From the IMG/VR virus record IMGVR_UViG_2925903241_000002: DNA of 16,970 nucleotides; one strand, written 5' to 3'. Position 1 is the stretch's first letter. The number at the start of each line of letters is the position of its first letter. The notes beneath the pieces are model-generated. The model was not told where the DNA came from. It worked only from the letters and a program-made list of their open reading frames with translations, and did not search any database. Position numbers and translations under genes: made by a program. The DNA is from a virus (Duplodnaviria > Heunggongvirae > Uroviricota > Caudoviricetes). Shown here one piece after another: positions 1-16,970 of the stretch.

Positions 1-1263
1 ATGAAACTCAACGCTCGCCAGATAGAGACCGCAAAGCCGAAAGAGAAAGCTTATAAAATGGCTGATGGAGGCGGTTTGTATCTTGAGGTCTCCCCTAAAG
101 GTTCTAAGTACTGGCGCATGAAATATCGCCGCCCCTCTGACAAAAAGGAAGATCGACTCGCTTTTGGTGTATACCCGACGGTCACTTTGGCTGAAGCGCG
201 GGGTAAGCGCGATGCAGCAAAGAAATTGTTGTCTCAGGGTATTGACCCCAAAGCTGAGCAAAAGGGGGCACAAGCTGAAATTGAGGGGGCATATTTATTT
301 GAAACTATCGCAAGGCAATGGCACGCAAGTAACCTTACTTGGAGCGAAGATCATAGCCGTCGTGTTCTGCTGACACTTGAGCAGTATATTTTCCCCTCGA
401 TAGGTCAAATCGATGCCAGAACGTTGAGAACCAGCCAGCTTCTCAATCCAATCAAAGCTGTCGATACGGCGGGTAAACATGATGTCGCGCAGCGACTGAT
501 GCAGCGCGTAACCGCAATTATGCGTTTTGGTGTGCAGAATGACCTCCTTGAATCAAATCCTGCATGCGATATGGCTGGAGCGCTTTTAAGCGTTAAAGCA
601 ACCCACCACCCAGCACTACCCCCAAAAAGAATCCCTGAGCTTCTTGAAAGACTATCACGCTATAAAGGGCGACTAATGACACGGCTTGCCGTTGAATTAA
701 CGCTACTCACATTTATACGTTCAAGTGAGATGCGTTTTGCTCGCTGGAGTGAGGTTAACTTTGAACGAAGCGAGTGGACAATACCCGGAATTCGTAAGCC
801 TATTCCCGGCGTAAAACACTCTGAGCGTGGGATGAAGATGAAAACTGAACATATTGTTCCGCTTAGCAAACAAGCATTTGATATTTTTAAACGTTTACAT
901 GCCTTGAGTGGTAAAGGTGAGGTTATATTTCCCAGCGATCATGATCCTAAAAAAGTAATGAGTGAAAATACAGTAAATAACGCCTTACGTGTAATGGGAT
1001 ATGATACGAAAACTGAAGTATGTGGTCATGGGTTTAGAACTATGGCGCGTGGTGCGCTAAGTGAGTCGAAACTATGGAATGATGATGCCATTGAAAGACA
1101 GTTAAGCCACGTTGAACGAAAAAATGTGAAAGGTTCATATATGCATACTTCCGAATATCTTGAAGAAAGAAGATTAATGCTGCAGTGGTGGGCTGATTAT
1201 ATTGATGCTAATAAGAATGGATCTGTCACACCATATGATTTTGCGCGTATGCATGGAAAATAA
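1..1263 (+). CDS. int: P4-type tyrosine integrase (site-specific recombinase); window starts at its ATG, so the attachment site, presumably a tRNA/tmRNA 3' end, lies upstream and out of view
   Basis: 420-aa ORF with the typical P4-integrase N-terminus (AKPKEKAYKMADGGGLYLEVSPKGSKYWRMKYR) and a catalytic-domain-like C-terminus (HGFRTMARGALSE ... SYMHTSEY). Family assignment is from motif recognition, not a search. Confidence 0.9.
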   Translation: MKLNARQIETAKPKEKAYKMADGGGLYLEVSPKGSKYWRMKYRRPSDKKEDRLAFGVYPTVTLAEARGKRDAAKKLLSQGIDPKAEQKGAQAEIEGAYLFETIARQWHASNLTWSEDHSRRVLLTLEQYIFPSIGQIDARTLRTSQLLNPIKAVDTAGKHDVAQRLMQRVTAIMRFGVQNDLLESNPACDMAGALLSVKATHHPALPPKRIPELLERLSRYKGRLMTRLAVELTLLTFIRSSEMRFARWSEVNFERSEWTIPGIRKPIPGVKHSERGMKMKTEHIVPLSKQAFDIFKRLHALSGKGEVIFPSDHDPKKVMSENTVNNALRVMGYDTKTEVCGHGFRTMARGALSESKLWNDDAIERQLSHVERKNVKGSYMHTSEYLEERRLMLQWWADYIDANKNGSVTPYDFARMHGK

Positions 1264-1292
1264 TTACCATTGGGGGCTGCGGAGAGATTTAA

Positions 1293-1931
1293 ATGAATAA
1301 TACTCAATTTGATAATAATTTGTTTTATTTTAATAGGTTAACTTACATAACGCCACACGAAGTGGCGCTTGCTATGAATGGTTTTGACTATGATACCGAA
1401 AATGATGAATTGACTGAGGTTCAATTAAAAGAGGTTATTAGATTAAGAAAGGCAATAACCAGAAATCTACAATTAATTAATGAATATAAAAACGTATCCG
1501 CCACGCAAAAAGTGGAGGCGAACTTATTATTAACTGCCGCTTATATCTTTCAGAGGGAAGGTATTGTACCTGTGGAGATTAAGGAGAGAATTGAGAACGC
1601 ATTACGACAACAGGTAAAAAATAAAGATTGGAGTGATATTCTAATGACGTTAGGAGGAAGTGAATTATATGAAGTTGGTAAAAAATTAAGGAGTAATGGT
1701 AGAGGGCAGTACAGAAAAGATGATGAGGATAATTATAGTTGTAAATTAATTTATTTACTAATTGAATTGCTTAAGAGACATGGAAAGGTAAGTTATAGCG
1801 ATAATAGTGTTATATATAATGATATTGTTTCTTTTTGTAATGAGAATGAGATTCTAATGAAAGGGGTTAAAAAAGCTACGTTTTATAAGAAAATAAAGCT
1901 TGGGAAAGACATTATAAAATACGGAGAGTAA
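1293..1931 (+). CDS. hypothetical protein; AT-rich orphan cargo gene between int and alpA
   Basis: 212-aa ORF with GGAGAG 6 nt upstream of the ATG. Composition is visibly AT-rich against the GC-rich backbone; the protein is charged and helix-prone, with no motif I recognise. Confidence 0.6.
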   Translation: MNNTQFDNNLFYFNRLTYITPHEVALAMNGFDYDTENDELTEVQLKEVIRLRKAITRNLQLINEYKNVSATQKVEANLLLTAAYIFQREGIVPVEIKERIENALRQQVKNKDWSDILMTLGGSELYEVGKKLRSNGRGQYRKDDEDNYSCKLIYLLIELLKRHGKVSYSDNSVIYNDIVSFCNENEILMKGVKKATFYKKIKLGKDIIKYGE

Positions 1932-1996
1932 ATTTATTAATTTTCTGGCTATCTCTCAATAGAAGGGCCACAAGAGGCTCTAACGGGCTATAGGGG

Positions 1997-2044
1997 GTAA
2001 TACGATGTAATATGGTGTAATACTGTGCTAATTCCTAGGTAATA
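1997..2044. repeat. helically phased GTAATA(C/T) direct repeats, candidate protein-binding array
   Basis: GTAATA at 1997, 2007, 2017 and 2039, with CTAATT at 2028, giving a 10-11 bp period in an AT-rich intergenic region upstream of alpA. Confidence 0.4.
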
Positions 2045-2308
2045 TGAATCGTTAAAATGCAATAATACCTTTTGACATATGATTTTTTGATTTTCCATCC
2101 TATCCATATGAATTCTATTGATTTTGTTTTTTTTTGTGCATTTCCTTCTCTCCGTGTTCTTTCATATGAATATTACTTCTTTTTTCAGTGGAGATTATTG
2201 TTTTTCAATAGAATCAATATTTGTCTTAATAGATTCCATTATCACTAGAATCACTTTTTCCCAGTGTTTAAAGTCACCGTGAACTTAAGTAGAACACGGA
2301 GTAACAAG

Positions 2309-2539
2309 ATGGAATATGCAAACAGCTTTTCAGATAATCAGACTCTTATCTCAGCAAAAGAGGTCTTAAGACGCGTTCAGCGTAGCAAGGCATGGCTTTA
2401 CAAACAGCTTGCAAACAATACATTTCCCCGTCCGGTGAAAATAGGAACTCGTGCAATTTCATTTGTTGAAAGCGAAGTGGATCACTGGATTCAAGAGCAA
2501 ATATATGCCTCTCGTGGTGAGCGATATGAAAATCACTAA
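2309..2539 (+). CDS. alpA: AlpA-family (excisionase-like, MerR-type HTH) transcriptional regulator
   Basis: GGAG 8 nt upstream of the ATG at 2309. The sequence LISAKEVLRRVQRSKAWLYKQLANNTFPRPVKIGTRAISFVESEVDHWI fits the AlpA pattern (FP+PVK+G.R...W.E+..W). The upstream ATG at 2264 lacks an RBS. Confidence 0.8.
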   Translation: MEYANSFSDNQTLISAKEVLRRVQRSKAWLYKQLANNTFPRPVKIGTRAISFVESEVDHWIQEQIYASRGERYENH

Positions 2540-2544
2540 TAAAA

Positions 2545-2572
2545 AAGCCCGACATAATGAATTTGTGGGCTT
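2545..2572. terminator. hairpin between the convergent alpA and RHH genes; probably a terminator for the minus-strand gene, possibly bidirectional
   Basis: Stem AAGCCCGACA / TGTGGGCTT with one mismatch. An A-run precedes it on the plus strand, which is a U-run after the stem on the minus strand. Confidence 0.4.
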
Positions 2573-2635
2573 AAAAATATTGTCGCTTACTGAAATTAAC
2601 ATGGAAACAGAGAGAACGTCTGTTGGCTTCTCTAT

Positions 2636-2821
2636 TCAACTACCTTGCTCTGGCTTATTTTTCCTGCGCTGTCGGCGTTTAATCTCGCCTTTTACAGCCG
2701 TAACAATGAATTGCGCTTTCGTTTCTCCATCTTCAAGGTTGCTTTCTAATTCTGCAACTACATCATGTGGGAAACGAGCATTAAGTTGCTGCGACTTGTT
2801 GTTAGTTGAACTCGTTGCCAT
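2636..2821 (-). CDS. small ribbon-helix-helix-like (Arc/CopG-type) DNA-binding protein, putative regulator
   Basis: 61-aa ORF with a strong SD (GAGGAG on the minus strand, about 8 nt before the ATG at 2821). The layout QLNARFPHDVV (beta strand), AELESNL (helix), KAQFIVTAVKGEIKRRQRR (basic helix) fits the RHH fold. Fold assignment is inference. Confidence 0.55.
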   Translation of the reverse strand: MATSSTNNKSQQLNARFPHDVVAELESNLEDGETKAQFIVTAVKGEIKRRQRRKNKPEQGS

Positions 2822-2840
2822 TACTGGATCTCCTCGCGTT

Positions 2841-2933
2841 AGGTGCGATTCAGTATATGCAAAAAAAATGATAATAAAAAGCTTGAAGTGCGATTCACTT
2901 AAGGGTAGCTTTAAAATTAAAGGTGCGATTCAC
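2841..2933. repeat. three direct repeats of (A/G)GTGCGATTCA(C/G) followed by an A-rich tract; candidate operator or origin-like site
   Basis: Copies at 2841-2853, 2886-2898 and 2921-2933, with a degenerate fourth (GTGCGAAGCC) at 2941-2950. They lie just upstream of the RHH gene start, between the divergent RHH gene and the primase operon. Confidence 0.5.
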
Positions 2934-3008
2934 CTTGTGAGTGCGAAGCCCGACAGTGCAGCAACACTAACCGGGCTTCTGACCAATCCGCTAAATGAGG
3001 TAACGAAG

Positions 3009-3185
3009 ATGGCTAAACAGAAGTGTACCTGGTTATTTGCGGCGATCAACCGCAGTCAACGCAATACCCGTCCTGTGATGTTAAGGATCACCGCAGATAA
3101 CGAGCGGTCAGCGCGGCGCAGACTTGCCCCGGACTATGTACTGAGCTTTGCCGGGCGCATTCCCTGCGGAGGTGAACATGCGTAA
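3009..3185 (+). CDS. possible small hypothetical protein (59 aa), first gene of the primase operon
   Basis: ATG at 3009 with GAGG about 9 nt upstream; its stop overlaps the next gene's start. It is embedded in a longer 244-aa ORF that is probably spurious upstream, so this call is weak. Confidence 0.3.
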   Translation: MAKQKCTWLFAAINRSQRNTRPVMLRITADNERSARRRLAPDYVLSFAGRIPCGGEHA

Positions 3186-3537
3186 TTATCCGCACCCCGG
3201 CGAACGCTGGCAGCATGAACGTGGCTGGACGGTCACGATTATCCGATTAATAGAAGCCTCGCCCTCTGTGGCGCTGGTTAATCCTGAATTCAGCTGTGAA
3301 GTGCTGATACGTCATGACAGCGACAACCAGCTTTCTTCCTGCCCTCTGGCATGGTTTGAACAGCGGTATACGCGCCTGTTTGATGTACCGCTCTTGAAGC
3401 CTGCACCAGCTCCTGCTGGCGGTAGTGGTTCCGGCCCGCTGACACTGCATCCGTCTGTGCTATTTATCCGCTGGCGGGAGCGTAGCATACGGCGTTCTGC
3501 TGAGCCTGACGACGGTCACTATTCAAAGTTTCTCTGA
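3178..3537 (+). CDS. hypothetical protein
   Basis: ATG at 3178 with GGAGG 6-9 nt upstream; GC-rich like the primase operon. The N-terminal 70 aa look globular and the C-terminus is low complexity, so the true stop may be misjudged. Confidence 0.55.
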   Translation: MRNYPHPGERWQHERGWTVTIIRLIEASPSVALVNPEFSCEVLIRHDSDNQLSSCPLAWFEQRYTRLFDVPLLKPAPAPAGGSGSGPLTLHPSVLFIRWRERSIRRSAEPDDGHYSKFL

Positions 3538-3568
3538 CAAAATACCGCTGAAAACGGAGTAATCCACG

Positions 3569-3853
3569 ATGAATATTTCAAACGGGCACAACGGTGCTCA
3601 GGGCCACACTTTGCCTGAAAAACACAATACCGGTGCTTTTGCCTATGGGTTGTCAGAGGACAGTTTCGGAAAACTGACCCGCGCAAGAAATGCCTGCGAC
3701 ATGCTCCAGCTTCTCTTTTCTGAATACCCGTCTCAGGCCGGAGCACTGGACGCTGGCTGTGCGCATGGTGTCGCCGCGCTGATGGAGTACCTGCTGGCAG
3801 ATTTGACGGATATTGCACACAGCTGCGCACTGATTGAAGGAGGTGCCAGATGA
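3569..3853 (+). CDS. hypothetical protein
   Basis: ACGGAG 9 nt upstream of the ATG; 94 aa; its stop overlaps the next start (ATGA). Confidence 0.6.
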   Translation: MNISNGHNGAQGHTLPEKHNTGAFAYGLSEDSFGKLTRARNACDMLQLLFSEYPSQAGALDAGCAHGVAALMEYLLADLTDIAHSCALIEGGAR

Positions 3854-4233
3854 ACCAGCCGCAGGTTTCCATTTTCCCGGCAGAAATGACCACCGCGCTT
3901 TACCGGCGGGCTATTGCTTCAGCATGGCGGCAGAAAATGCTGAACGAAACTGGCAGTGATCAGTATGGTCCGCACAGCCTGACGGTGGAGCGTATTGAAA
4001 TGGCCATTGCGCTGCATATCGAGTGCGTACTGATTAACGAGTACGGCGAAGCACAGGGCGCCGCTGCCGCGCTGGCACTGCTGACTGACATGCTGGAGCC
4101 GTCACTGCTGACCGCGCCGCCGGTACTGACCGCGCGCGGCTGTGAAGTGATGGCGGAGATGTACCGCACGCTTCCGGCGGCCTTTGATGACTTCTGCAGT
4201 ACCGGTGTGACGTTGTATCAGGGGGAAGTATGA
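3850..4233 (+). CDS. hypothetical protein
   Basis: GAAGGAGG upstream; 127 aa; translationally coupled to both neighbours through ATGA overlaps at 3850 and 4230. Confidence 0.6.
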   Translation: MNQPQVSIFPAEMTTALYRRAIASAWRQKMLNETGSDQYGPHSLTVERIEMAIALHIECVLINEYGEAQGAAAALALLTDMLEPSLLTAPPVLTARGCEVMAEMYRTLPAAFDDFCSTGVTLYQGEV

Positions 4234-6902
4234 CAATACAGACGGTTACGCAGATTTCAGCCGCCGCACGGGGGAAATGGCCCGTTATTCTCCAGATGCT
4301 GCGTATTGATGTACCTGAAAACGGCAGGCACGGTCCCTGCCCGAAATGTGGGGGCAAGGATCGTTTTCGCCTTGATGACCTTGACGGGCGCGGGACGTGG
4401 ATCTGCAGCCAGTGTGGCAATGGTGACGGTCTGGATCTGGTTAAGCTCGTAACCGGTTACAGCGTCAGAAAGGCTGCGCAGGAGGTGGCGCAGGTGCTTA
4501 ATGTGCCGGATGTGCAGGAACTGCCTGTTAAGCCTGCCAGAAAAAAAGCCCCTAAACGCGACATGGGTCTTACCGTGGCGGCGCTGATGAAAGAGAGCCA
4601 CACGGGAGAAAGCGCCTATCTGACAGGAAAAGGGTTCGCCGGATACCCGGCCTCTCTGACCGGAAGCGTGCAGCATATCAGCGGTAAGGATTTTCCTGCC
4701 GGTTCCCTGCTGTTACCACTCACGACCAACACCGGAGCCGTGACTGGTGCACAGCTTATCGCCCCGACGGGTGAAAAAAGCATACTGCCCGGCAGCACGA
4801 TGAAAGGCGCGTTTGTGTCGCTCAGCCCGTTACCGTCTGAACCACCGGTACAGGTGGTGATTACCGAAGGTTACGCTACGGCGCTGACGGTAAGTCAGCT
4901 CACTGCCGGATGCGTAGTGGCTGCCATATCTGCGGGCAACCTGCCCAATGTGGCGCAGTCGCTGCGGGCACGCTGGCCTGAGGTAAAAATTATCATCGCC
5001 GGTGATAACGATTTTCAGGACGGGGGTGAGAATCCCGGCAGAGCCTTTGCTGAACGGGCGGCAAAAGCTGTTGGCGGCTGGATGACGCTGCCACCGGGAG
5101 AGATTAAGGCCGACTGGAATGACTTCCATCGGGAGCACGGTATTACCCGCGCCCGTGAAGCCTTTCGTAACGGTCTGGTGCTGTGCGGGGAGGGCCGCAC
5201 GCAACTGCCGCACGGGTTCCGTCTTACCCAGGAATATCTCTGGTATGAAAAGCAGGTACAGCGCAACGGTGAGACGGAGATCCAGAACGTCAAAATATGC
5301 AGCCCGCTGCGCGTGACGGCAATCACCTGCGATGCCGATGGCGGTAACTTCGGACGACTGCTGGAATGGGAAGATACGTGGGGTGAGTGTCGCCGCTGGG
5401 CGATGCCGATGGAAATGCTGAGCGGCAGTGGTGAGGAACTGCGCCGGGTATTGCTGGTTAACGGGCTGTCTTATATCAGCACCACCGGTGAGGCACGCGC
5501 ACGCCTGATGGAATATATCTCACTGTGTAAACCGGAACGCCGCGTGACCTGCGTCAGTCGTACTGGCTGGCATGGTCAGGTTTACGTCCTGCAGGATGAG
5601 GTCAGCGGTGAAGGTGCAGAGGGTGTCATTCTCCAGACCACTTCCGTGCAGGGGCGTGATTTCCGCGTGTCGGGCACAACAGAGGAATGGCGGGAGCATG
5701 TATCCCGCTACTGTACCGGCAACTCCCGCGTGGCATTTGCTGTCAGCCTGGCCTTTGCTGCACCACTGTTACGGCTGGTTGGTATGGACGGCGGCGGCTA
5801 CCACCTCAAAGGGGAATCGACAGACGGTAAGACCACCACCATGAAAGCGGCAACCTCCGTCTGCGGCGGGCCTGACTACTGGCAGACATGGCGGGCCACC
5901 GGCAACGCGCTGGAGGGATGCGCCAGCCGCCGCAACGATGCCGCCATGATGCTTGATGAGATCCGGGAAGTTGACGGACGCGAGGCAGGCAATATCGCCT
6001 ACATGCTGGCAAACGGTCAGGGCAAGGGCCGTGCCGGTACGGACGGTGAGCTGCGTACCCGTAAGCATTGGCGCCTGTTGTTCTTTTCAACTGGCGAGTT
6101 GTCTCTGACCGAACATGCGGCAAAGGCCGGTGAGCGTACTTTTGCCGGGATGGAAGTCAGGATGATCCAGATCCCCAGCGATTCCGGGAAGTTTGGCGTT
6201 TTTGAGGAGCTGCACGGCTTCGACAGCGGCAAGGCTCTGGCAGAGCATCTTGAATGGGCCACGTCCTGCTACTACGGTTCGCCGTTCCGGGAGTGGCTGA
6301 AAGCACTGACCGCTGATCTTAACGGACTAACGGCACAGGCAAAATCGCTGATGAAGGAATATGCTGCCGCCCTGACTCCGAAAGATGCAGGCAATCAGGT
6401 GGGCCGGGCTGTGAACCGCTTTGCTCTGGTGGCGATGGCAGGTGAACTGGCAACCCGTCTGGGTATCACCGGCTGGCCTGAGGGTGAAGCACTGCGGGCA
6501 ACCCGCGTCTGCCTGAACGCATGGCTGAAAGATCGCGGGCACACCGCCAATCAGGAAGATATCGCCGCACTGGAGCAGGTTCGCAGTTTCTTTACCGCGA
6601 ATCAGTACAGCCGCTTTGCAGACTGGTATGACGAGCGCAACCGCCCCGGCAATATGGTGGGCTGGCGCAGGGTGGAGAAAGGCAGTACCGCGCAGGGCAC
6701 GGAAGCTGTCACTACGTTCTATGTCATGCCGTCCGGCTGGAAAGAAATCTGCAGGGGATTTGACCCGCGCAAGGTGGCGCGTCTGTGCGCAGATCGTGGA
6801 TACCTGCTGCCCTCCACTGATGGCAAACTCCAGACAACCATTCGCCCGCCAGAGATGAATCCCCGCAGGCTCTATGTCTTCAACAGCGAGGTGCCGGGTT
6901 AA
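4230..6902 (+). CDS. P4 alpha-like primase-helicase (zinc-binding domain, Toprim, P-loop NTPase)
   Basis: 890 aa. N-terminal CPKCGG...CSQCGNGDG zinc ribbon; Toprim-like EGYATALT ... IIAGDNDF; Walker A GESTDGKTT; GGGGAAG RBS. Confidence 0.9.
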   Translation: MTIQTVTQISAAARGKWPVILQMLRIDVPENGRHGPCPKCGGKDRFRLDDLDGRGTWICSQCGNGDGLDLVKLVTGYSVRKAAQEVAQVLNVPDVQELPVKPARKKAPKRDMGLTVAALMKESHTGESAYLTGKGFAGYPASLTGSVQHISGKDFPAGSLLLPLTTNTGAVTGAQLIAPTGEKSILPGSTMKGAFVSLSPLPSEPPVQVVITEGYATALTVSQLTAGCVVAAISAGNLPNVAQSLRARWPEVKIIIAGDNDFQDGGENPGRAFAERAAKAVGGWMTLPPGEIKADWNDFHREHGITRAREAFRNGLVLCGEGRTQLPHGFRLTQEYLWYEKQVQRNGETEIQNVKICSPLRVTAITCDADGGNFGRLLEWEDTWGECRRWAMPMEMLSGSGEELRRVLLVNGLSYISTTGEARARLMEYISLCKPERRVTCVSRTGWHGQVYVLQDEVSGEGAEGVILQTTSVQGRDFRVSGTTEEWREHVSRYCTGNSRVAFAVSLAFAAPLLRLVGMDGGGYHLKGESTDGKTTTMKAATSVCGGPDYWQTWRATGNALEGCASRRNDAAMMLDEIREVDGREAGNIAYMLANGQGKGRAGTDGELRTRKHWRLLFFSTGELSLTEHAAKAGERTFAGMEVRMIQIPSDSGKFGVFEELHGFDSGKALAEHLEWATSCYYGSPFREWLKALTADLNGLTAQAKSLMKEYAAALTPKDAGNQVGRAVNRFALVAMAGELATRLGITGWPEGEALRATRVCLNAWLKDRGHTANQEDIAALEQVRSFFTANQYSRFADWYDERNRPGNMVGWRRVEKGSTAQGTEAVTTFYVMPSGWKEICRGFDPRKVARLCADRGYLLPSTDGKLQTTIRPPEMNPRRLYVFNSEVPG

Positions 6903-6936
6903 GGCTTTGCGTGAGTCTTATTTATTAAGGGTAACA

Positions 6937-7124
6937 GGTGAAACAGGTGGAACAACCGTATTTTACAGGGCTGAACCTGTTCCACCTTCTGAAATAGTGA
7001 GGTGGAACAGATGTAACGCCAGCCAATCCGCTGTTCCACCTTGTTACCCGCGATGTTCCACCGGTGCAGTGTATATAAATGCCTTATAAAACAAAGCTGT
7101 AACACATGTTTCACCTGTTCCACC
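6937..7124. repeat. iteron cluster: eight copies of TGTTCCACC or its variant TGTTTCACC in both orientations; candidate alpha-binding cis replication region (crr/ori-like)
   Basis: Forward copies at 6978-6986, 7032-7040, 7054-7062, 7107-7115 (variant) and 7116-7124; reverse copies at 6937-6945 (variant), 6946-6954 and 7001-7009. The cluster lies directly downstream of the primase gene. P4 ori and crr carry the similar octamer TGTTCACC, as I recall it. Confidence 0.6.
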
Positions 7125-7212
7125 GCATCAGGGACATAAAGCAGACTGAAACAGAGGGCATTTTTATCTGGCTGGCTTTCATAGCCACGTCTGAATAACC
7201 GCAAGCGTCCGT

Positions 7213-7230
7213 TGTGCCAGCCACCACACA
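7213..7230 (+). promoter_or_regulatory. TGT-N12-ACA dyad upstream of the sid operon; candidate Ogr/Delta activator site of a P2/P4-type late promoter
   Basis: TGT at 7213-7215 and ACA at 7228-7230 with a 12-nt spacer, centred about 80 bp before the sid ATG. A second dyad at 7251-7268 sits too close to the start codon to be the activator site. Confidence 0.4.
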
Positions 7231-7302
7231 CTGAGCACCGATAGTGTGCTTGTGTCAGCCACGACACAATTGACGTAACGAACCAACCCGACAGGAGAAG
7301 TC

Positions 7303-8046
7303 ATGAACAACACCGCAGTGAATAACAACCTTTCCACTTTTCCGGCTGTAACGCAGCGGGCACTGGAAACCATGAACACAGCCAGAAACGCATGGCTTGA
7401 AGCACGTCGTCAGCAGAAAGCGGCAGCGGATAATATTGCGACAATCCGCCAGCGTCGCGCTGAAATGGAAGCCACGACGAACACACTGAATGAGGAGTGG
7501 CGCACGCTGTTTCGTGAAAGTCAGGGCGTGGTCTCAAAGGAAATGAAAAAACTGCGCACGGAAATTGCGCTGGGACGAGAAACGCTTGAGGATTTTGATG
7601 AGCTGCTGGCGGCTCAGGAAAGCGAAAATGCACTTTTGCCGCAGAAAGCTGCAGAATTAGCCGGAAAGTATATCCACGCGCATAACATTCTTGTGGATAT
7701 TCGCGCAAAACAAATCTGGGAGGATTTTATGCAGTCGCATGGAAAAGCGCTTATTCAGACGCTGAGCCTGCTTAAATCCACAATGGGCCGGGAAGCCAGT
7801 GCCGTTGTGGGTGTGGTGAATTCAGTTAATGACCCGGACACAGTGCTGAAAGACTTTATTCATAAACATATCACCAGACCGGCTCTGGCTAACGATGCGA
7901 TGCCTGAGCAGGACCCGGTGTTTAAACTGGCGGGAGTTGCCCCGGATTATGCGGCGCGTCTGGATTTCAGTAATCAACTCTCTCCGGCAGCTATGCATAA
8001 AATTAAGGTTCGTCAGGAACTTGCTGAGAAGGAGAAAGCAGTATGA
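7303..8046 (+). CDS. sid: Sid-like capsid size determination (external scaffold) protein
   Basis: 247 aa, helical and Ala/Glu-rich. Position after alpha and before psu matches P4. The segment EEWRTLFRESQGVVSKEMKKLR resembles my recollection of P4 Sid. Confidence 0.7.
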   Translation: MNNTAVNNNLSTFPAVTQRALETMNTARNAWLEARRQQKAAADNIATIRQRRAEMEATTNTLNEEWRTLFRESQGVVSKEMKKLRTEIALGRETLEDFDELLAAQESENALLPQKAAELAGKYIHAHNILVDIRAKQIWEDFMQSHGKALIQTLSLLKSTMGREASAVVGVVNSVNDPDTVLKDFIHKHITRPALANDAMPEQDPVFKLAGVAPDYAARLDFSNQLSPAAMHKIKVRQELAEKEKAV

Positions 8047-8594
8047 CGGCCCGAGGCACGCCTGACCAGGCACTTACCAGTTTTCGGAATGCCCGTATTC
8101 TGTGGGCCGGACATAATGAGAGCCGAAAAGCCGTTGAACAACAGATAACATCTCTCCTCGCTGCCACAGAAAAACCAGCAGATTATGCCCGACAGCTCGA
8201 ATTACTGCGGGAACGTCTGGATGTGCTGAAATGGCAAATTAACTGTGCTGCGCGCGAATGCATTTACTCGCAGCATTTACTGATGGAGGCCTGCACAGAA
8301 GCCGCTCTCAGCAATTTTATGCAGGCGAATGGGGCAGCCCTGACATCTGCACTGGCTCCGTTCCTGAAGGGGCGCGGAGGGGTTGACGTTGCGTCCCGTA
8401 TATTACGCAGTGCTCTGGTTCGCCAGCTGGCAATAACACCGCCTGAAATTGCCGGGGATTATCGTGAGATCCTGGATGAATCCGGTTTGATGCCTGACCC
8501 CGGGATGATTCGTGATTGCCAGGGTTCTTACACCCCGGCACAACATCTGCGTTTTCAGCAACGCCTGAATGACATTAACGATATACAGGAGTGA
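8043..8594 (+). CDS. psu: Psu-like polarity suppression / capsid decoration protein
   Basis: 183 aa with an ATGA overlap to sid. The segments LKWQINCAARECIYSQHLL, FMQANGAALTSALAPFL and YTPAQHLRFQQRLN resemble recalled P4 Psu motifs. Confidence 0.7.
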   Translation: MTARGTPDQALTSFRNARILWAGHNESRKAVEQQITSLLAATEKPADYARQLELLRERLDVLKWQINCAARECIYSQHLLMEACTEAALSNFMQANGAALTSALAPFLKGRGGVDVASRILRSALVRQLAITPPEIAGDYREILDESGLMPDPGMIRDCQGSYTPAQHLRFQQRLNDINDIQE

Positions 8595-8599
8595 TATTA

Positions 8600-8872
8600 A
8601 TGGCACTTAAATGTCCGGAATGCGGTACAGTTGCACACGCCAGAACAGCAGCCTATGAAGCTCCGTCAGTTAAACGCTCGTGGTATCAGTGCCAGAATCT
8701 GGAATGTTCCTGCACATTTACGGCACTGGAGAGTGTGGATAAGATAATCATGAAACCCCGGCGCAATGAACAGCTATCAGACAAAGCACAATCCCCGGAA
8801 AAACAACAGAAAACGCTCAATCGCTATGGCTCCGCGTCAAAACTGTCAAGCCGTCAGCAGATTCCTGTCTGA
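8600..8872 (+). CDS. Ogr/Delta-family zinc-finger late transcription activator
   Basis: C-x2-C-x22-C-x4-C (CPECG ... CQNLECSC) at the N-terminus; GGAG 8 nt before the ATG at 8600. The in-frame GTG at 8591 is less likely. Confidence 0.85.
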   Translation: MALKCPECGTVAHARTAAYEAPSVKRSWYQCQNLECSCTFTALESVDKIIMKPRRNEQLSDKAQSPEKQQKTLNRYGSASKLSSRQQIPV

Positions 8873-8892
8873 TTAGAAAGAACGCCCACGTA

Positions 8893-8919
8893 ATCCCGGT
8901 CCAGTACCGGGATTTTTTA
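8893..8919 (+). terminator. rho-independent terminator of the sid-psu-ogr late operon
   Basis: Stem ATCCCGGT / ACCGGGAT (8 bp), loop CCAGT, followed by TTTTTT. Confidence 0.7.
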
Positions 8920-9244
8920 CCCCCTTTTCCTGGCTGACATGAGAGCGCATGAGTGCATGTCTATGGCGCATGAAAACGCATGAGTCTTATGCACCATTTT
9001 TGACGAGAAAACCCTTGTGTGCTGGCTTCTGAGACGATTAATGAGGTGCATGAAAACCAGTCTGTTAAGCGAAGCGGGCAGGCGTGCGGGGCTGCCCGCA
9101 CTAACGGTGATAATTGTGATGTTGCGATATCAAGAGAGATATAAGAATGCTGTATTCAATAAGGTATTGCTTTCAATTGTTAGATTTATTTTTGTTTAAA
9201 TGTCAATGGTTTAGGTGGTTGCTGGCAGCCAGTACGCTTACTTA

Positions 9245-9272
9245 TTGAAAATCTCGCATCTTTTGCTATCCT
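9245..9272 (+). promoter_or_regulatory. candidate sigma70 promoter for the retron ncRNA/operon
   Basis: TTGAAA at 9245-9250, 16-nt spacer, TATCCT at 9267-9272, directly upstream of the structured ncRNA region. Confidence 0.35.
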
Positions 9273-9274
9273 AA

Positions 9275-9450
9275 CCCTACCTTTACGCGCGGGATAACAG
9301 GTTTATCCTTGTCGGGCGTTTCGCCAGACACTAATTTATTGTGGACATTTAGGGTTGCGCTTTAGCACTTTCAGCAAGATCCTTCATGCCACTGCGTTCC
9401 ATTCAGGATCTTGCTGAAAGTCTAAAGCGCATCCTTTAGGTAAAGGGGTC
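9275..9450 (+). ncRNA. retron msr-msd-like non-coding RNA (ends approximate)
   Basis: Two short hairpins (GGATAA-CAGGT-TTATCC at 9292-9308; GGCG-TTT-CGCC at 9315-9325), then a long imperfect inverted repeat: GCGCTTTAGCACTTTCAGCAAGATCC at 9357-9382 pairing with GGATCTTGCTGAAAGTCTAAAGCGC at 9406-9430 (one mismatch, about 22-nt loop). CCTTTAC at 9279 and GTAAAGG at 9440 are candidate a1/a2. It sits immediately upstream of an effector-RT gene pair. Confidence 0.6.
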
Positions 9451-9499
9451 GAAGGTGGCTGGTTAGCCACCTTTTCTTTTGGAGTAGGGGGTCACAAGG

Positions 9500-10486
9500 G
9501 TGAGTGATTCTGCATATATGAATGCATTACAAGAGCAGTTTGGAGATTTGAAATATTCAAATTTCACTGTTCAGTTCATGCCTCCTATTATTTTTGTTTG
9601 TGGTGGGCCGATAAATTCCACTCCAATGAGTGTACGAGACCACATATTTACTTATGTAGCAGGCCACAAACCTGAATTGTCAGATTCTCTTATTTTAGCT
9701 GAGAACTTCCATGACTACTTCAGAGAGGGGGCATATTCAGATCTAATGAGCTTTGAAGATGATATTGCAAATATTTCAACATTAGTTGTTATCTGTTTAG
9801 AAAGTGCAGGTTCGTTAGTTGAGCTTGGATTATTTGTTAATAGGAAGTCTCTAGCTCAAAAATTGCATGTAGTCGCACCATTTGAGGAGATTGAGGGAAA
9901 TGAACGAAAAAATATTCCTGCTAGATCTTCTTTTATATATTTAGGCCCTTTGGAGTATCTTAAAAAAATAGATGAGGCCTCAGTATCAGTTTATCCATGG
10001 CCAAAATCGGATCGTATGAAATATGATGAGGTTGAGCTTATCTACCATGATATTCATTCTAGATTAAAACGTGTAAAAAAAACGGAGCGATATAACCCTG
10101 AAAATACTGGGCACCTAGCTATATTGATTTACGAAATAATCCTTTTATCAGAACCAATCAAGAAAAGCGAAATAGAGTGGGCACTATACTGTATGGATAT
10201 AGATGTGCCACAAAAAATAATAACTCGTTTACTTTATTTGCTTGAAAAGATGAAATTAACCTCATCATTATCTTACAGTGGTACAGACTACTTCTATTCC
10301 CGAGGGCATAGAGAGAGTAAACTTAAATTTGGTATCAGTGCTAGTGGTAAAATAAAGGATTCTATGAATATTAAGGTTGCAATCCGACAATCTTACTTAA
10401 GTATGGATGCTAAAGATATGGACGAGACTGCAAAAAAAAGGAAAAATGCTCTAAATCAAATCAATATCGTGCGTGGAGGGGCTTAG
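9500..10486 (+). CDS. retron effector candidate: nucleoside 2-deoxyribosyltransferase-like N-terminal domain with a possible winged-helix C-terminal domain
   Basis: 328 aa, AT-rich. PPIIFVCGGP and VVICLESAGSLVELGLF resemble the NDT/Rossmann-like fold with a conserved Glu. The start is uncertain: GTG at 9500 or ATG at 9518, neither with a strong SD. The stop lies 1 nt before the RT start. Confidence 0.65.
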   Translation: MSDSAYMNALQEQFGDLKYSNFTVQFMPPIIFVCGGPINSTPMSVRDHIFTYVAGHKPELSDSLILAENFHDYFREGAYSDLMSFEDDIANISTLVVICLESAGSLVELGLFVNRKSLAQKLHVVAPFEEIEGNERKNIPARSSFIYLGPLEYLKKIDEASVSVYPWPKSDRMKYDEVELIYHDIHSRLKRVKKTERYNPENTGHLAILIYEIILLSEPIKKSEIEWALYCMDIDVPQKIITRLLYLLEKMKLTSSLSYSGTDYFYSRGHRESKLKFGISASGKIKDSMNIKVAIRQSYLSMDAKDMDETAKKRKNALNQINIVRGGA

Positions 10487-10487
10487 A

Positions 10488-11420
10488 ATGGAGTTGCTAA
10501 GTTATATTTCAAAAGGTCTTTTTCTTAGCGAAGAAGAGGCTAAAAGGTATATTGTTACTATTCCACGCAGATATAAAATTTATCCTATCGCCAAAAGAAA
10601 TGGTAATGGATATAGATTAATTGCACAACCAGCTAGGCAAGTTAAAGCCTTACAGAAGGTAGTAATCAATCATATGTTGGCTAATTTGAAAGTTCATGAA
10701 AATGCTTTCGCTTATGAAGCCGATAAAAGTATTAGATCTAATGCGTTAATGCATTGTAATAATGATTATTTGCTTAAAATGGATTTTAAAAACTTTTTTA
10801 TGAGTATCAAACCCCATAATCTTTTATCTGTCTTAAAAGATTATGGCGTTGAACTAACTGATACTGATATCTTTGTTCTTAAAAATCTTTTCTTCTGGAA
10901 GTTAAGAAGAAATAGCCCGTTACGCCTAAGTGTTGGAGCACCTTCTTCTCCCATTATTTCAAATACAGTAATGTATTTCTTCGATGAGGAAATATCGAAA
11001 AGATGCAAGGATTTGGGTATTACCTACTCAAGGTATGCTGATGATCTTACGTTTAGCACCAAAGTCAAAGGAGCTTTATTTGATGTTCCTAAGTTAGTAA
11101 GGGAAGTTCTTAACGTAGTAAATCTTAGGAATATTAAAATAAACCATGAGAAAACAGTTTTTACCTCAAGGAAGTTTAATAGACATGTAACTGGTGTAAC
11201 TATTACGACTGATGGTTATTTGTCTTTAGGTCGTGATAGAAAGCGTCTTTTAAGAAGTAAAATACATTATTATGTGTGTGGGGTTTTATCTGAGAAAGAA
11301 ATTCTAACCCTTAAAGGAGAATTAGGCTATGCGAAATTTATTGAACATAAATTCTTTGCCTCCATGATTAAGAAATATGGGGATGATGTAATCAGCGAAA
11401 TTTCAAAATATGAAATTTAA
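10488..11420 (+). CDS. retron-type reverse transcriptase
   Basis: GGAGG 8 nt upstream of the ATG at 10488. RT motifs are present: IYPIAKRNGNGYRLIAQP (motifs 1-2), LKMDFKNFFMSI (3), SVGAPSSPIISN (4), YSRYADDLTFS (5, YADD). NRHVTGVTI carries the retron-characteristic VTG motif, and about 310 aa is typical retron RT size. Confidence 0.85.
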   Translation: MELLSYISKGLFLSEEEAKRYIVTIPRRYKIYPIAKRNGNGYRLIAQPARQVKALQKVVINHMLANLKVHENAFAYEADKSIRSNALMHCNNDYLLKMDFKNFFMSIKPHNLLSVLKDYGVELTDTDIFVLKNLFFWKLRRNSPLRLSVGAPSSPIISNTVMYFFDEEISKRCKDLGITYSRYADDLTFSTKVKGALFDVPKLVREVLNVVNLRNIKINHEKTVFTSRKFNRHVTGVTITTDGYLSLGRDRKRLLRSKIHYYVCGVLSEKEILTLKGELGYAKFIEHKFFASMIKKYGDDVISEISKYEI

Positions 11421-11874: not shown

Positions 11875-12976
11875 ATGGCTCTGAGTGATGTGAAGGTTCG
11901 TTCGGCTAAGCCTGAAGCAAAAGCCTATAAGCTGACCGACGGTGAAGGCATGGTTTTGCTGGTTCACCCTAACGGCTCCAAATACTGGCGGCTACGTTAT
12001 CGCTTTGGCGGTAAAGAGAAGATGCTGGCATTGGGGAAATACCCCGAAGTGTCGTTGGCGGATGCCAGGGCACGCCGGGATGAGGCTCGTAAGCTTTTAG
12101 CTAATGGTGTCGATCCCAGTGAAAACAAGAAAGCTGTTAAGGTAGAACAGGAACAAGAGGCGATAACGTTGAAGTAGTCGCCAGAGACTGGCACGCCAGC
12201 AATCAGAAGTGGTCGGCATCGCATAGCGCTCGTGTTTTGAAAAGTCTGGAGGATAATCTCTTTACTGCTATCGGTAAGCGGAACATTGCGGAACTGAAGA
12301 CGCGGGATCTTCTTGTACCCATTAAAGCAGTCGAGTCATCCGGGCGGCTCGAAGTTGCCGCCCGTTTACAGCAGCGTACTACCGCGATTATGCGCTTTGC
12401 CGTTCAGAGCGGCTTAATCGACTACAACCCCGCGCAAGAGATTGCAGGTGCGGTTGCTACGGCGAAAAGACAGCACCGTGCAGCTCTTGAACTGAACCGT
12501 ATACCTGAATTACTTCATCGCATAGATCACTATTCTGGCAGACCGTTAACTCGGCTGGCGGTTGAACTCACTTTATTGGTTTTCATCCGTTCGAGCGAGC
12601 TGCATTTTGCCCGCTGGTCAGAAGTAGATTTTGAAACGGCTATGTGGACAATCCCAGGTGAGCGTGAGCAACTGGAAGGAGTCAAGCATTCTCAGCGTGG
12701 CTCGAAGATGCGGACACCACACCTTGTGCCTTTGTCGCGGCAGGCCCTAAGTATTTTGGAAAAGATCAAAAGCATGAGCGGAAATTGAGAGCTGATTTTT
12801 GTGGGCGATCACGATCCACGTAAGCCGATGAGTGAGAATACGGTGAACAAGGCTTTGCGCGTAATGGGGTATGACACGAAGGTCGAGGTTTGTGGGCATG
12901 GCTTCAGGACGATGGCTTGTAGTTCGTTGATTGAGTCGGGATTATGGTCGAGGGATGCGGTAGAGCGGCAGATGAG
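11875..12976 (+). pseudogene. second P4-type integrase, inactivated by a frameshift, a nonsense codon and 3' truncation by the IS element
   Basis: AAGGA RBS and ATG at 11875. The translation parallels the first integrase across three frames: a frame break near 12160-12177, an in-frame TGA at 12786-12788 where the first integrase has Gly, and an end at the IS inverted repeat at 12977. Confidence 0.8.
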
Positions 12977-13018
12977 TGAACCGCCCCGGGTTTCCTGGAG
13001 AGTGTTTTATCTGTGAAC

Positions 13019-15761
<2,743 letters not shown>

Positions 15762-16175
15762 CGTAAGTAAAATCAGCCACCCACAGCTGGTCAGGTCGTT
15801 CTGCCACGAACTGACGGTTTACGCGGTCGCCTGCGGCAACGGCTTTCCGGCTGATGGTCGTACGGACCTTTTTACCCCGGAGAACACCGGCAAGTCCCAT
15901 AACCGCCATGAGACGTGCCACAGTGCATCTGGCCACTCTGATACCTTCCCGTAACAACTGACGCCAGACTTTACGCACACCGTATACCTTGTGATTTTCA
16001 TCGTATACGCGCTGTATCTCTTTCTTCAGCCAGTCATCGCGCTGCGCACGGGCACTGCGTTTATCCGGATGATGTCGCTGTTGCTGACAGTGGTAATACG
16101 TTGACGGGGCAATATGCAGTTCGCTGCATAGCGGTCCGACCCCGTACTGCTCACGCAGCTTATCCAGCAGTGGCA

Positions 16176-16179
<4 letters not shown>
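15762..16179 (-). pseudogene. IS3-family transposase OrfB, 5' exon (interrupted by the group II intron after ...LWVADFTY)
   Basis: The reading frame runs into intron sequence (GVPGVQ ...) at 15761; the intron begins GTGTG on the minus strand. Confidence 0.8.

Positions 16180-16970
<791 letters not shown>

Follow-up and report, generated by a model that had tools for sequence, protein, structure and literature searches.

A gene lying between the int and alpA genes of a P4-like satellite belongs to a small Enterobacterales family and occupies an exchangeable slot

Background

What does a single AT-rich gene do between the integrase gene and alpA of a phage satellite? The question is raised by a stretch of 16,970 nucleotides from a Caudoviricetes virus (IMG/VR record IMGVR_UViG_2925903241_000002), called here the window, in which an ORF for a 212-aa protein lies directly behind int and is followed by alpA. 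An earlier note on this DNA had described the ORF as an orphan and had read its position and composition as those of horizontally acquired cargo, such as a single-gene defence, superinfection-exclusion or anti-defence function in a second accessory slot. Gram-negative PICIs have been reported to rely on the activator AlpA, and the inducer of alpA in PICIs of E. coli was said in 2018 to be a matter that "is now under study" (Fillol-Salom et al., PMC6092414). Barcia-Cruz et al. (2024) likewise ask by what means the early regulon is activated by the helper, and in what way AlpA interacts with Int and with the gene product that they call IOLG (PMC10803314).

Results and discussion

Organisation of the host element

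The window opens with int (1..1263, + strand), coding for a P4-family tyrosine integrase of 420 aa (PF13356, PF22022 and PF00589) that is 72% identical to P4 Int, and in strain M217 (NZ_AP019189) a tRNA-Leu gene is found 164 nt upstream of the window start. On the other side of the 212-aa ORF, alpA (2309..2539, + strand) codes for a regulator and excision factor of the Vis/AlpA type of 76 aa (PF05930, E=1e-11), and both neighbours are thus what the earlier note had taken them for. A hairpin-like terminator, read from the sequence and not called by the scan, follows alpA at ~2546-2575. The next gene, a small one of the YlcI/YnfO family by its RefSeq annotation (2636..2821, - strand), is the last of an exchangeable left arm and is missing or replaced in relatives with other left arms. 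The right-hand recombination boundary of this arm was placed at 2948..2970, the point from which elements that have other left arms become homologous to the window (with window:2264-4230 as the query, the first matching positions were 685 and 707).

Downstream, all on the + strand, come an icd-like gene, two small ORFs and a DUF5375 gene, located between the ylcI gene and the primase, then the TOPRIM/DUF927 primase itself (alpha, 4230-6902) and the genes sid-like (7303-8046), psu (8043-8594) and delta (8600-8872). By this gene content the element is a P4-like satellite. The left arm, int ... alpA - ylcI - icd, follows the plan of the Gram-negative PICIs, the late genes come co-directionally after the primase, and the gene order is not that of P4 (PMC8628076). 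The spacer between alpha and sid (6903-7150) contains TGTTCCACC-type iterons resembling the type 1 origin repeats annotated in P4. An St85-type retron with a GC content of 0.32-0.35 (9500-11420) occupies the canonical hotspot downstream of delta, and beyond it there are a second integrase, which is degenerate, fragments of IS3 and a group II intron. In the search for attR, no direct repeat of at least 12 nt from the region between tRNA-Leu and int was found downstream. Among 5426 complete E. coli genomes, 204 matched the first 3 kb of the window, with an identity of 90-100%.

A constrained gene of a small family

The ORF (1293..1931, + strand) begins with an ATG at 1293, with 8 nt between this codon and the GGAG of a Shine-Dalgarno sequence GGAGAG (1281..1286, + strand, by direct reading), which bears out the good ribosome binding site reported before. 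The int stop codon (1261-1263) ends 29 nt before the start. At the composition of the ORF the probability of 212 sense codons arising by chance is ~4e-10. In 2000 shuffles open runs reached 98 codons at most, versus the 212 of the ORF. Compared with alleles from other genera that are 91-93% identical, its dN/dS was 0.15-0.17 (0.04 for int and 0.09-0.13 for alpA in the same comparison). This is a real and constrained gene under purifying selection.

The GC content of the ORF (0.307) is indeed lower than that of its neighbours int (0.447) and alpA (0.411), as had been pointed out, and the replication and late genes are at 0.50-0.59. Actually, the AT-rich block exceeds the ORF and extends from ~750, inside int, to ~2950. 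Low GC is common to the whole left arm and to both of the gene families found in this position (see below), and therefore it is no mark of recent acquisition.

Nor is the gene an orphan. The protein matched the HMM of PHROG 30524, a family of unknown function, over its full length (E=9.6e-109, residues 1-212 against positions 1-220 of the 220 in the profile). A word-indexed search of 5.8 billion proteins retrieved 23 clusters and a second profile search 35, while a profile search of 1.84 billion representatives matched only 41 proteins. The named sources were Enterobacterales throughout, comprising Escherichia, Enterobacter, Citrobacter, Salmonella, Klebsiella, Erwinia, Yokenella, Hafnia and Pantoea, together with Pseudocitrobacter, Izhakiella, Apirhabdus and Symbiopectobacterium. 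This set, to which we refer as family A, is a small, narrow and uncharacterised family of the Enterobacterales.

The earlier statement that the protein has no recognisable motif was correct as far as Pfam, NCBIfam and PADLOC are concerned. Pfam and NCBIfam scans of the 212-aa protein gave nothing significant, the same was true of the Pfam scan of 31 family A members, and none of the defence HMMs of PADLOC-DB 2.0 matched the protein at E<=1. Sequence searches of the PDB with full-length and C-domain profiles returned chance matches only (ING5 and a xylanase), a fold search of BFVD with the model of the protein gave no match, and no RNA family of Rfam was found over 1200-3300 with either gathering or E-value thresholds. 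In the literature, neither WP_001066505 nor phrog_30524 was mentioned in any paper found.

A constant position behind the integrase

The family A loci that could be compared came from eight genomes of other genera, from Hafnia, Pantoea and one metagenome contig, and from 15 IMG/VR contigs, to which were added an excised PICI-like element of E. coli (a circular "plasmid" of 12 kb), a PICI-like island of Klebsiella and the induced 16.5-kb capsid-encoding element vB_KppS-Ant. In every readable locus of this set (~28) the family A gene was found immediately after int and on the same strand. Wherever there was enough downstream sequence it was followed by alpA, at a distance of 250-630 bp, with the exception of the Hafnia locus L016 in which no alpA was called. 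This arrangement was shared by three types of satellite, P4-like (sid/psu/delta), PICI-like (AntA, PerC, primase) and cf-PICI-like. The integrases of these loci are 22-100% identical, the most distant pairs of loci sharing as little as 22-27%, and family A members at 22-28% identity are still located directly behind int.

The two genes are also very close. Relative to the int stop, the slot gene started at distances of -4, -4, -1, -1, 2, 5, 29 and 49 nt (29 being that of the window), and the 216-aa IMG/VR subfamilies overlapped int by 4 nt in all cases. Such overlaps and short gaps are the layout of translationally coupled genes, unlike that of a self-contained moron.

An exchangeable slot between int and alpA

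The block from icd to DUF5375 was present in 332 E. coli genomes, only ~200 of which had the left arm of the window. The other ~130 combined a replication and late module with 98-99% aa identity with another arm, in which int, the gene in the slot and alpA were all different. Three of these elements were found to have in this position a protein of 293 aa, one of 324 aa, or a copy of something similar split by an IS1. These belong to a second uncharacterised family, designated here family B (290-324 aa, for example WP_089631386 and WP_024235423), which is AT-rich as well (0.33-0.36), has no Pfam domain, displays an N-terminal HTH-like motif and is conserved at its C-terminal end. In E. coli, Yersinia, Serratia and Salmonella alike, its members were always located between int and alpA. 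No homology could be detected between families A and B (hhalign probability 0.35%).

The most informative comparison was that of L021, carrying family B, with L026, carrying family A. Their integrases are 92% identical in aa and the genes are 82% identical in nt as far as int nt 1245. From 13 nt inside alpA onwards the two are homologous again, with 76% nt identity, and between these homologous flanks lie unrelated slot genes and differing regions upstream of alpA. The slot gene and the non-coding region before alpA are exchanged as one cassette. Furthermore, a leuX-type int that is 97% identical was joined to a family A allele of only 65% identity, with the break exactly at the int stop codon, and family A was paired with some integrases of the yicC-adjacent site (68-92% identical), family B with others. 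This lack of co-variation speaks against a specific partnership with Int, with a 65% slot protein behind a 97% int and another family behind a 92% int. That the slot family might co-vary with the type of alpA was also ruled out, by L021 compared with L026 and L027.

EcCICFT073, the Gram-negative PICI that has been studied best, has the slot without any gene. Since this PICI is fully mobile (PMC6092414), the function in the slot is not universally required. In CP4-57 of K-12 the gap between int and alpA is occupied by YfjH, on the opposite strand and unrelated to families A and B. The slot suggested in the earlier note is therefore real, its content differing between related elements (family A, family B or empty). 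Only two families fill it across >35 loci, and otherwise it is empty. No remote homology of families A and B to each other, to P4 cII or to YfjH was detected. As a separate observation, AT-richness, fast evolution and exchangeability are equally expected of cargo.

Phased repeats upstream of alpA

The region before alpA contains an array of phased direct repeats (2185..2252, + strand), with copies TCAGTGGAGAT at 2185, TCAATAGAATC at 2205 and TTAATAGATTC at 2226 recognised by a scan that combined a PWM with spacing, and a fourth copy, TCACTAGAATC, at 2242 of the same array. The units are 11-mers of the type TCAAT(A/G)GAAT, spaced by 19-23 nt (~21 bp, equivalent to two helical turns) in at least three copies per family A locus. 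In the window the array ends ~57 nt before the ATG of alpA, and across the family this distance is 60-90 nt.

The PWM was derived from five loci and applied to all loci in the set (807 kb, both strands) with chains of three hits required. Chains of this repeat were confined to the region upstream of alpA in family A loci, namely the window and L005, L008, L010-12, L016, L018, L019, L026 and L027, many of which are outside the training set of the PWM. In L020 the array was visible by eye, and among further IMG/VR loci it was detected in 13 of 15. By a rough estimate from 0.94 hits/kb, only ~0.02 chains were expected by chance in 807 kb versus the 12 observed upstream of alpA. One other chain corresponded to an unrelated repeat, TCGGTAGTATT, in an intergenic region of Hafnia (L017). 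The same 807-kb scan gave no chains in the family B loci, P4, CP4-57 or CFT073.

L026 and L027, both with family A and the array, share a 75%-identical AlpA with L021, which has family B and no array. With the same type of AlpA and a different state of the array, these loci show that the array tracks the slot gene and not alpA. The spacer before alpA differs in the same way, being long in family A loci (300-630 bp) versus 102-125 bp in those of family B.

Closer to the slot gene there is a second set of repeats, tandem iterons GTAATAY with a period of ~10 bp (1990..2047, + strand, copies at 1997, 2007, 2017 and 2039), whose sequence is element-specific. Several roles were considered for them and rejected. 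As sites for the 212-aa protein they are contradicted by a comparable array in EcCICFT073, which lacks the slot gene. As the origin for the alpha primase they were rejected because the TGTTCCACC-type iterons, with their resemblance to the P4 origin repeats, are in the spacer between alpha and sid, and because a 99%-identical alpha occurs with different left arms. Arm sites for Int would not be expected to differ where Int is 97% identical, as these iterons do, and none of them was found near attL; the other intergenic repeat motifs were also absent there. Finally, an anti-SD pairing of 11 nt (2150-2160 with 2291-2301) that might have masked the alpA RBS in read-through transcripts turned out to be allele-specific and not conserved in close relatives.

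Architecture of the protein

An AlphaFold2 model built with a 31-sequence alignment was all-alpha (pLDDT 89.3, pTM 0.62), and the family A protein is helical with two domains, N (1-133) and C (134-212). The N-domain is acidic (pI 5.5) and the least conserved part, with 30% mean pairwise identity. The C-domain is basic (pI 9.06) and includes the best conserved segment, GRGxxRKxDE..KLIxLLxxLL (54% identity). The last part of the domain reads I-Y-x-D-I ... G-[IVL]-x-K-[AS]-T-F-Y-x-K, with an HTH-like helix G-x-K-K-[AS]-T-F-Y-K-K.

This C-terminal motif resembles the helix-turn-recognition-helix of HTH proteins of the resolvase or excisionase type, and weak echoes of this were seen in profile comparisons. 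An hhalign comparison with an AlpA alignment placed 16 columns on the recognition helix, a weak match (E=0.0057, probability 6.5%), and sporadic sub-threshold HTH matches appeared among family A members, one of the 31 matching PF05930 at E=0.024. For the HTH of Xis, AlpA and Vis (PF05930 and PF12728) there was no Pfam match for the window protein and no significant profile-profile match.

Known systems with a similar layout

The nearest parallel has been described in the PICMI satellites. In PICMI115 the gene iolg, the one positional analogue studied by experiment, overlaps int by 4 nt, precedes alpA and is necessary for helper-induced excision; iolg is present in 21 of 35 PICMI subfamilies, a contiguous gene (icg) in four and neither of them in three (PMC10803314). 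The iolg/icg genes make up 13 families of unknown function with int overlaps of 1, 4 or 13 nt, and int and iolg appear to be constitutive, the phage-induced gene being alpA (PMC10803314). Located between int and alpA on the + strand with a gap of 29 nt, the 212-aa gene has the position by which iolg and icg are recognised. The likeness is positional, consisting in the order int-gene-alpA, the same strand and the overlap or contiguity with int. Moreover, the genes of both groups are diverse and fast-evolving, are absent in a minority of elements and are part of an int - gene - alpA - primase layout. They differ in that the PICMIs have Vibrionaceae hosts and are other satellite types, that a phased array is unreported for PICMIs and that the need for excision was shown for the iolg of PICMI115 only. 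Among the enterobacterial PICIs, EcCIMP1 also carries a small uncharacterised gene in the interval from int to alpA (PMC11773190). The 212-aa gene is an enterobacterial addition to this positional class of int-coupled satellite genes. Family B shares the slot of family A, sometimes between homologous flanks, although without the phased array and with a short spacer.

The Stl/Rpr repressors of the SaPIs offer a possible analogy. Like the 212-aa gene may do, they lie next to int, are expressed in the resident state, diverge between elements and control the switch to excision and replication, and they combine a DNA-binding part with a variable part that reads a helper protein, which the two domains of family A might parallel. 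In contrast, Stl/Rpr are divergent from the operon that they repress and have a recognisable HTH, whereas the 212-aa gene is co-directional with alpA and lacks a Pfam HTH. The recombination directionality factors of the Xis/Vis/AlpA group (HTH_17, PF05930) are small DNA-binding proteins, encoded beside int and often overlapping it, that bind phased direct repeats; the 212-aa protein has two domains and three times the size, and an AlpA is already present in the element. In P4 itself, whose Int is 72% identical to that of the window, the gene directly downstream of int on the same strand is cII (sce7726 family) of the Gop-beta-cII module, with a gap of 66 nt. It showed no sequence similarity to the 212-aa protein (no BLASTP match at E<=1 and no NCBIfam match), and the order that follows is cII, beta, gop, cos, psu and not alpA.

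Possible functions of the gene

Life-cycle control is more likely than anti-phage cargo as the role of the 212-aa gene. Our proposal, a plausible though tentative one, is that its product is a DNA-binding life-cycle factor, co-expressed with int, that acts on alpA or together with it in excision or induction. While the element is integrated, the int transcript would give rise to the protein as well as to Int. The basic C-domain would bind DNA, most plausibly the phased TCAAT(A/G)GAAT repeats, and in this way the protein might set the expression of alpA or work with AlpA and Int in excision, while the variable N-domain could read a signal from the helper phage or the host. It would then be the enterobacterial functional counterpart of the iolg/icg products of the PICMIs. 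The phased repeats could instead be read by AlpA, by a helper factor or by a host factor.

The best surviving of the alternatives is the one advanced in the earlier note, accessory cargo for defence, superinfection exclusion or anti-defence in a second slot by int, which we now regard as unlikely. The GC content of the ORF (0.307) is near that of the retron and unlike the core, the content of the slot swaps between conserved flanks and is empty in a functional PICI, and its protein evolves faster than its neighbours (65% where int is 97%). In addition, P4 cII, directly after int, is part of the int-psu defence hotspot (PMC9122126, PMC13586616), and PICIs continue to yield new single-gene systems that PADLOC and DefenseFinder overlook (PMC11364771). 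Against all this, PADLOC gave no match, the two families in >35 loci are far from the much wider turnover of unrelated systems in real hotspots, and family A was never seen away from int. The same family keeps the same position behind integrases only 22-27% identical in three satellite types, with start codons that overlap the int stop, something unusual for morons with their own promoter and terminator. The cassette also includes the alpA control region, with a phased array specific of one family. Moreover, the described defence regions are elsewhere. In PICIs the immune regions are at the 5' end (att-int), at the 3' end and next to pri (PMC11364771), and in P4-like elements the systems are found between int and the psu-delta-sid operon or, in a minority, between primase and att (PMC8628076, PMC13586616). 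The retron of the window already occupies the canonical hotspot of the element, and the analogue iolg is needed for excision (PMC10803314). Thus, an AT-rich and variable gene beside an integrase need not be defence cargo. If it were a defence or exclusion gene after all, the slot would be a new satellite hotspot missed by current maps.

Quite unlikely in our opinion is an architectural or directionality role beside Int, in which the protein would be part, with Int and AlpA, of the nucleoprotein complex for excision or integration at att, without any regulation of alpA. The apparent translational coupling to int speaks for it, as does the model proposed by the PICMI authors of an excision complex made of Int, IOLG and AlpA (PMC10803314). 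On the other hand, variation in the slot protein follows neither int nor the att site, as seen in the leuX int and in the integrases of the yicC-adjacent site that pair with either family, and the intergenic repeat motifs are absent near attL.

To return to a life-cycle factor acting through alpA, a more specific version of it can be imagined, which we consider improbable as it stands. Families A and B would be helper-sensing regulators in heteroimmune-like cassettes, each composed of a regulator and its own alpA operator and promoter. The regulator would be co-expressed with int in the resident state, with the C-domain on the repeats and the N-domain switched by a helper protein. If true, this would explain how the helper activates alpA, and with it excision, replication and hijacking, in P4-like elements, PICIs and cf-PICIs.

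A host-directed regulator acting outside the satellite cycle and defence, for example on H-NS-silenced or virulence genes as those of the PerC/ANR type, is very improbable, since its strict position and its link to the alpA control region would be left unexplained and no similarity to the PerC or ANR families was found (Pfam, NCBIfam and Pfam on family members), even if PICIs carry such regulators (PMC11773190) and the protein is small and helical, has a basic C-terminus and is presumably expressed with int in the resident state.

Family A is a tractable candidate for the switching of alpA in E. coli with P2, lambda or phi80 as helpers. The phased repeats are the candidate cis-element, and natural controls with the same flanks are provided by the cassettes of family B and by EcCICFT073 with its empty slot.

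Architecture of the element

The element is composed of a PICI-like left arm followed by P4-like late genes. Along window positions 1-8872 the genes run int, slot gene, alpA, ylcI (minus strand), icd and on to the primase, sid, psu and delta, co-directional apart from ylcI. This order differs from that of P4, in which int, the hotspot, psu, delta and sid are divergent from alpA, eps and alpha. The PICI EcCICFT073 has the same left-arm architecture as the window. The GC content of int falls at about position 750: it is 0.484 for nt 1-750 and 0.392 for nt 751-1263. Despite this internal drop, identity between genera is 92-99% along the entire gene.

Two insertions were found in the region of the slot gene, the ORF lying between int and alpA. 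In NZ_CP128592 (L002 3706-5307), a sibling element located at tRNA-Thr, the slot gene is interrupted by an IS1, which leaves an N-terminal piece of 62 aa and a remainder of 210 aa, and in NZ_CP116094 the window's own allele has an IS903B within its int-alpA block. In the resident state the elements seem to tolerate these insertions.

Repeats in the left arm and near the primase

PICI-type left arms carry tandem iterons with a 10-bp period just 3' of int or of the slot gene. Their sequence is element-specific: GTAATAY in the window (1990-2047), AACAAC-type in EcCICFT073 (11180-11250) and several types in vB_KppS-Ant (7130-7340). Their identification as alpha-primase iterons was rejected, and none of these 10-bp-period iterons were found near att. 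In the loci with family B, the unrelated proteins that occupy the same slot, a GGTA...TACC dyad is found immediately 3' of the slot gene (L021 6951-7057, L003 5362-5464, L004 5360-5467 and L024 6894-7007). In L021 it reads GGTACTGCAAAATTACAGTACC and is followed by TTTT. This dyad could be an intrinsic terminator of the int and slot gene transcript, or else an operator.

Upstream of alpA there is a perfect 11-nt inverted repeat, with arms at 2150-2160 (CTCCGTGTTCT) and 2291-2301 (AGAACACGGAG), the right one spanning the Shine-Dalgarno sequence of alpA. On transcripts reading through from int, this repeat could mask the translation of alpA. By shuffling, the chance of such a repeat at this place was p ~0.003; its conservation was looked for in close relatives and was absent. 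The ylcI-icd spacer contains three direct copies of GTGCGATTCA(C/G), at 2843, 2888 and 2923, directly left of the recombination boundary (~2948-2970). These copies are part of the exchangeable left arm and may serve the icd-primase operon as operators. A search of this spacer against Rfam gave no C4/CI-type RNA.

In addition, the primase-sid spacer (6903-7150) holds TGTTCCACC/GGTGGAACA about ten times, with copies in either orientation. These copies are similar to the repeats that the P4 record annotates as type 1 origin, and they probably act as origin or crr of the DUF927 primase.

Defence hotspot and right end

Downstream of delta, at the canonical P4 defence hotspot, we found a St85-family retron (9500-11420; GC 0.32-0.35) made up of an effector (9500-10486) and a reverse transcriptase (10488-11420). 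A long inverted repeat at ~9370-9450, in the spacer upstream of it (8873-9499), may be part of the retron msr/msd RNA.

An attR repeat was sought and not found. The region 11875-16500 has the appearance of a tandem island at leuX that has decayed. It starts with a degenerate second tyrosine integrase (~11875-13013), followed by IS3 fragments with a group II intron, which has an Rfam Intron_gpII match (13492-13578) and an RT/maturase on the minus strand (13582-15105), and an IS3 frameshift pseudoknot (ALIL) is located at 16105-16221.
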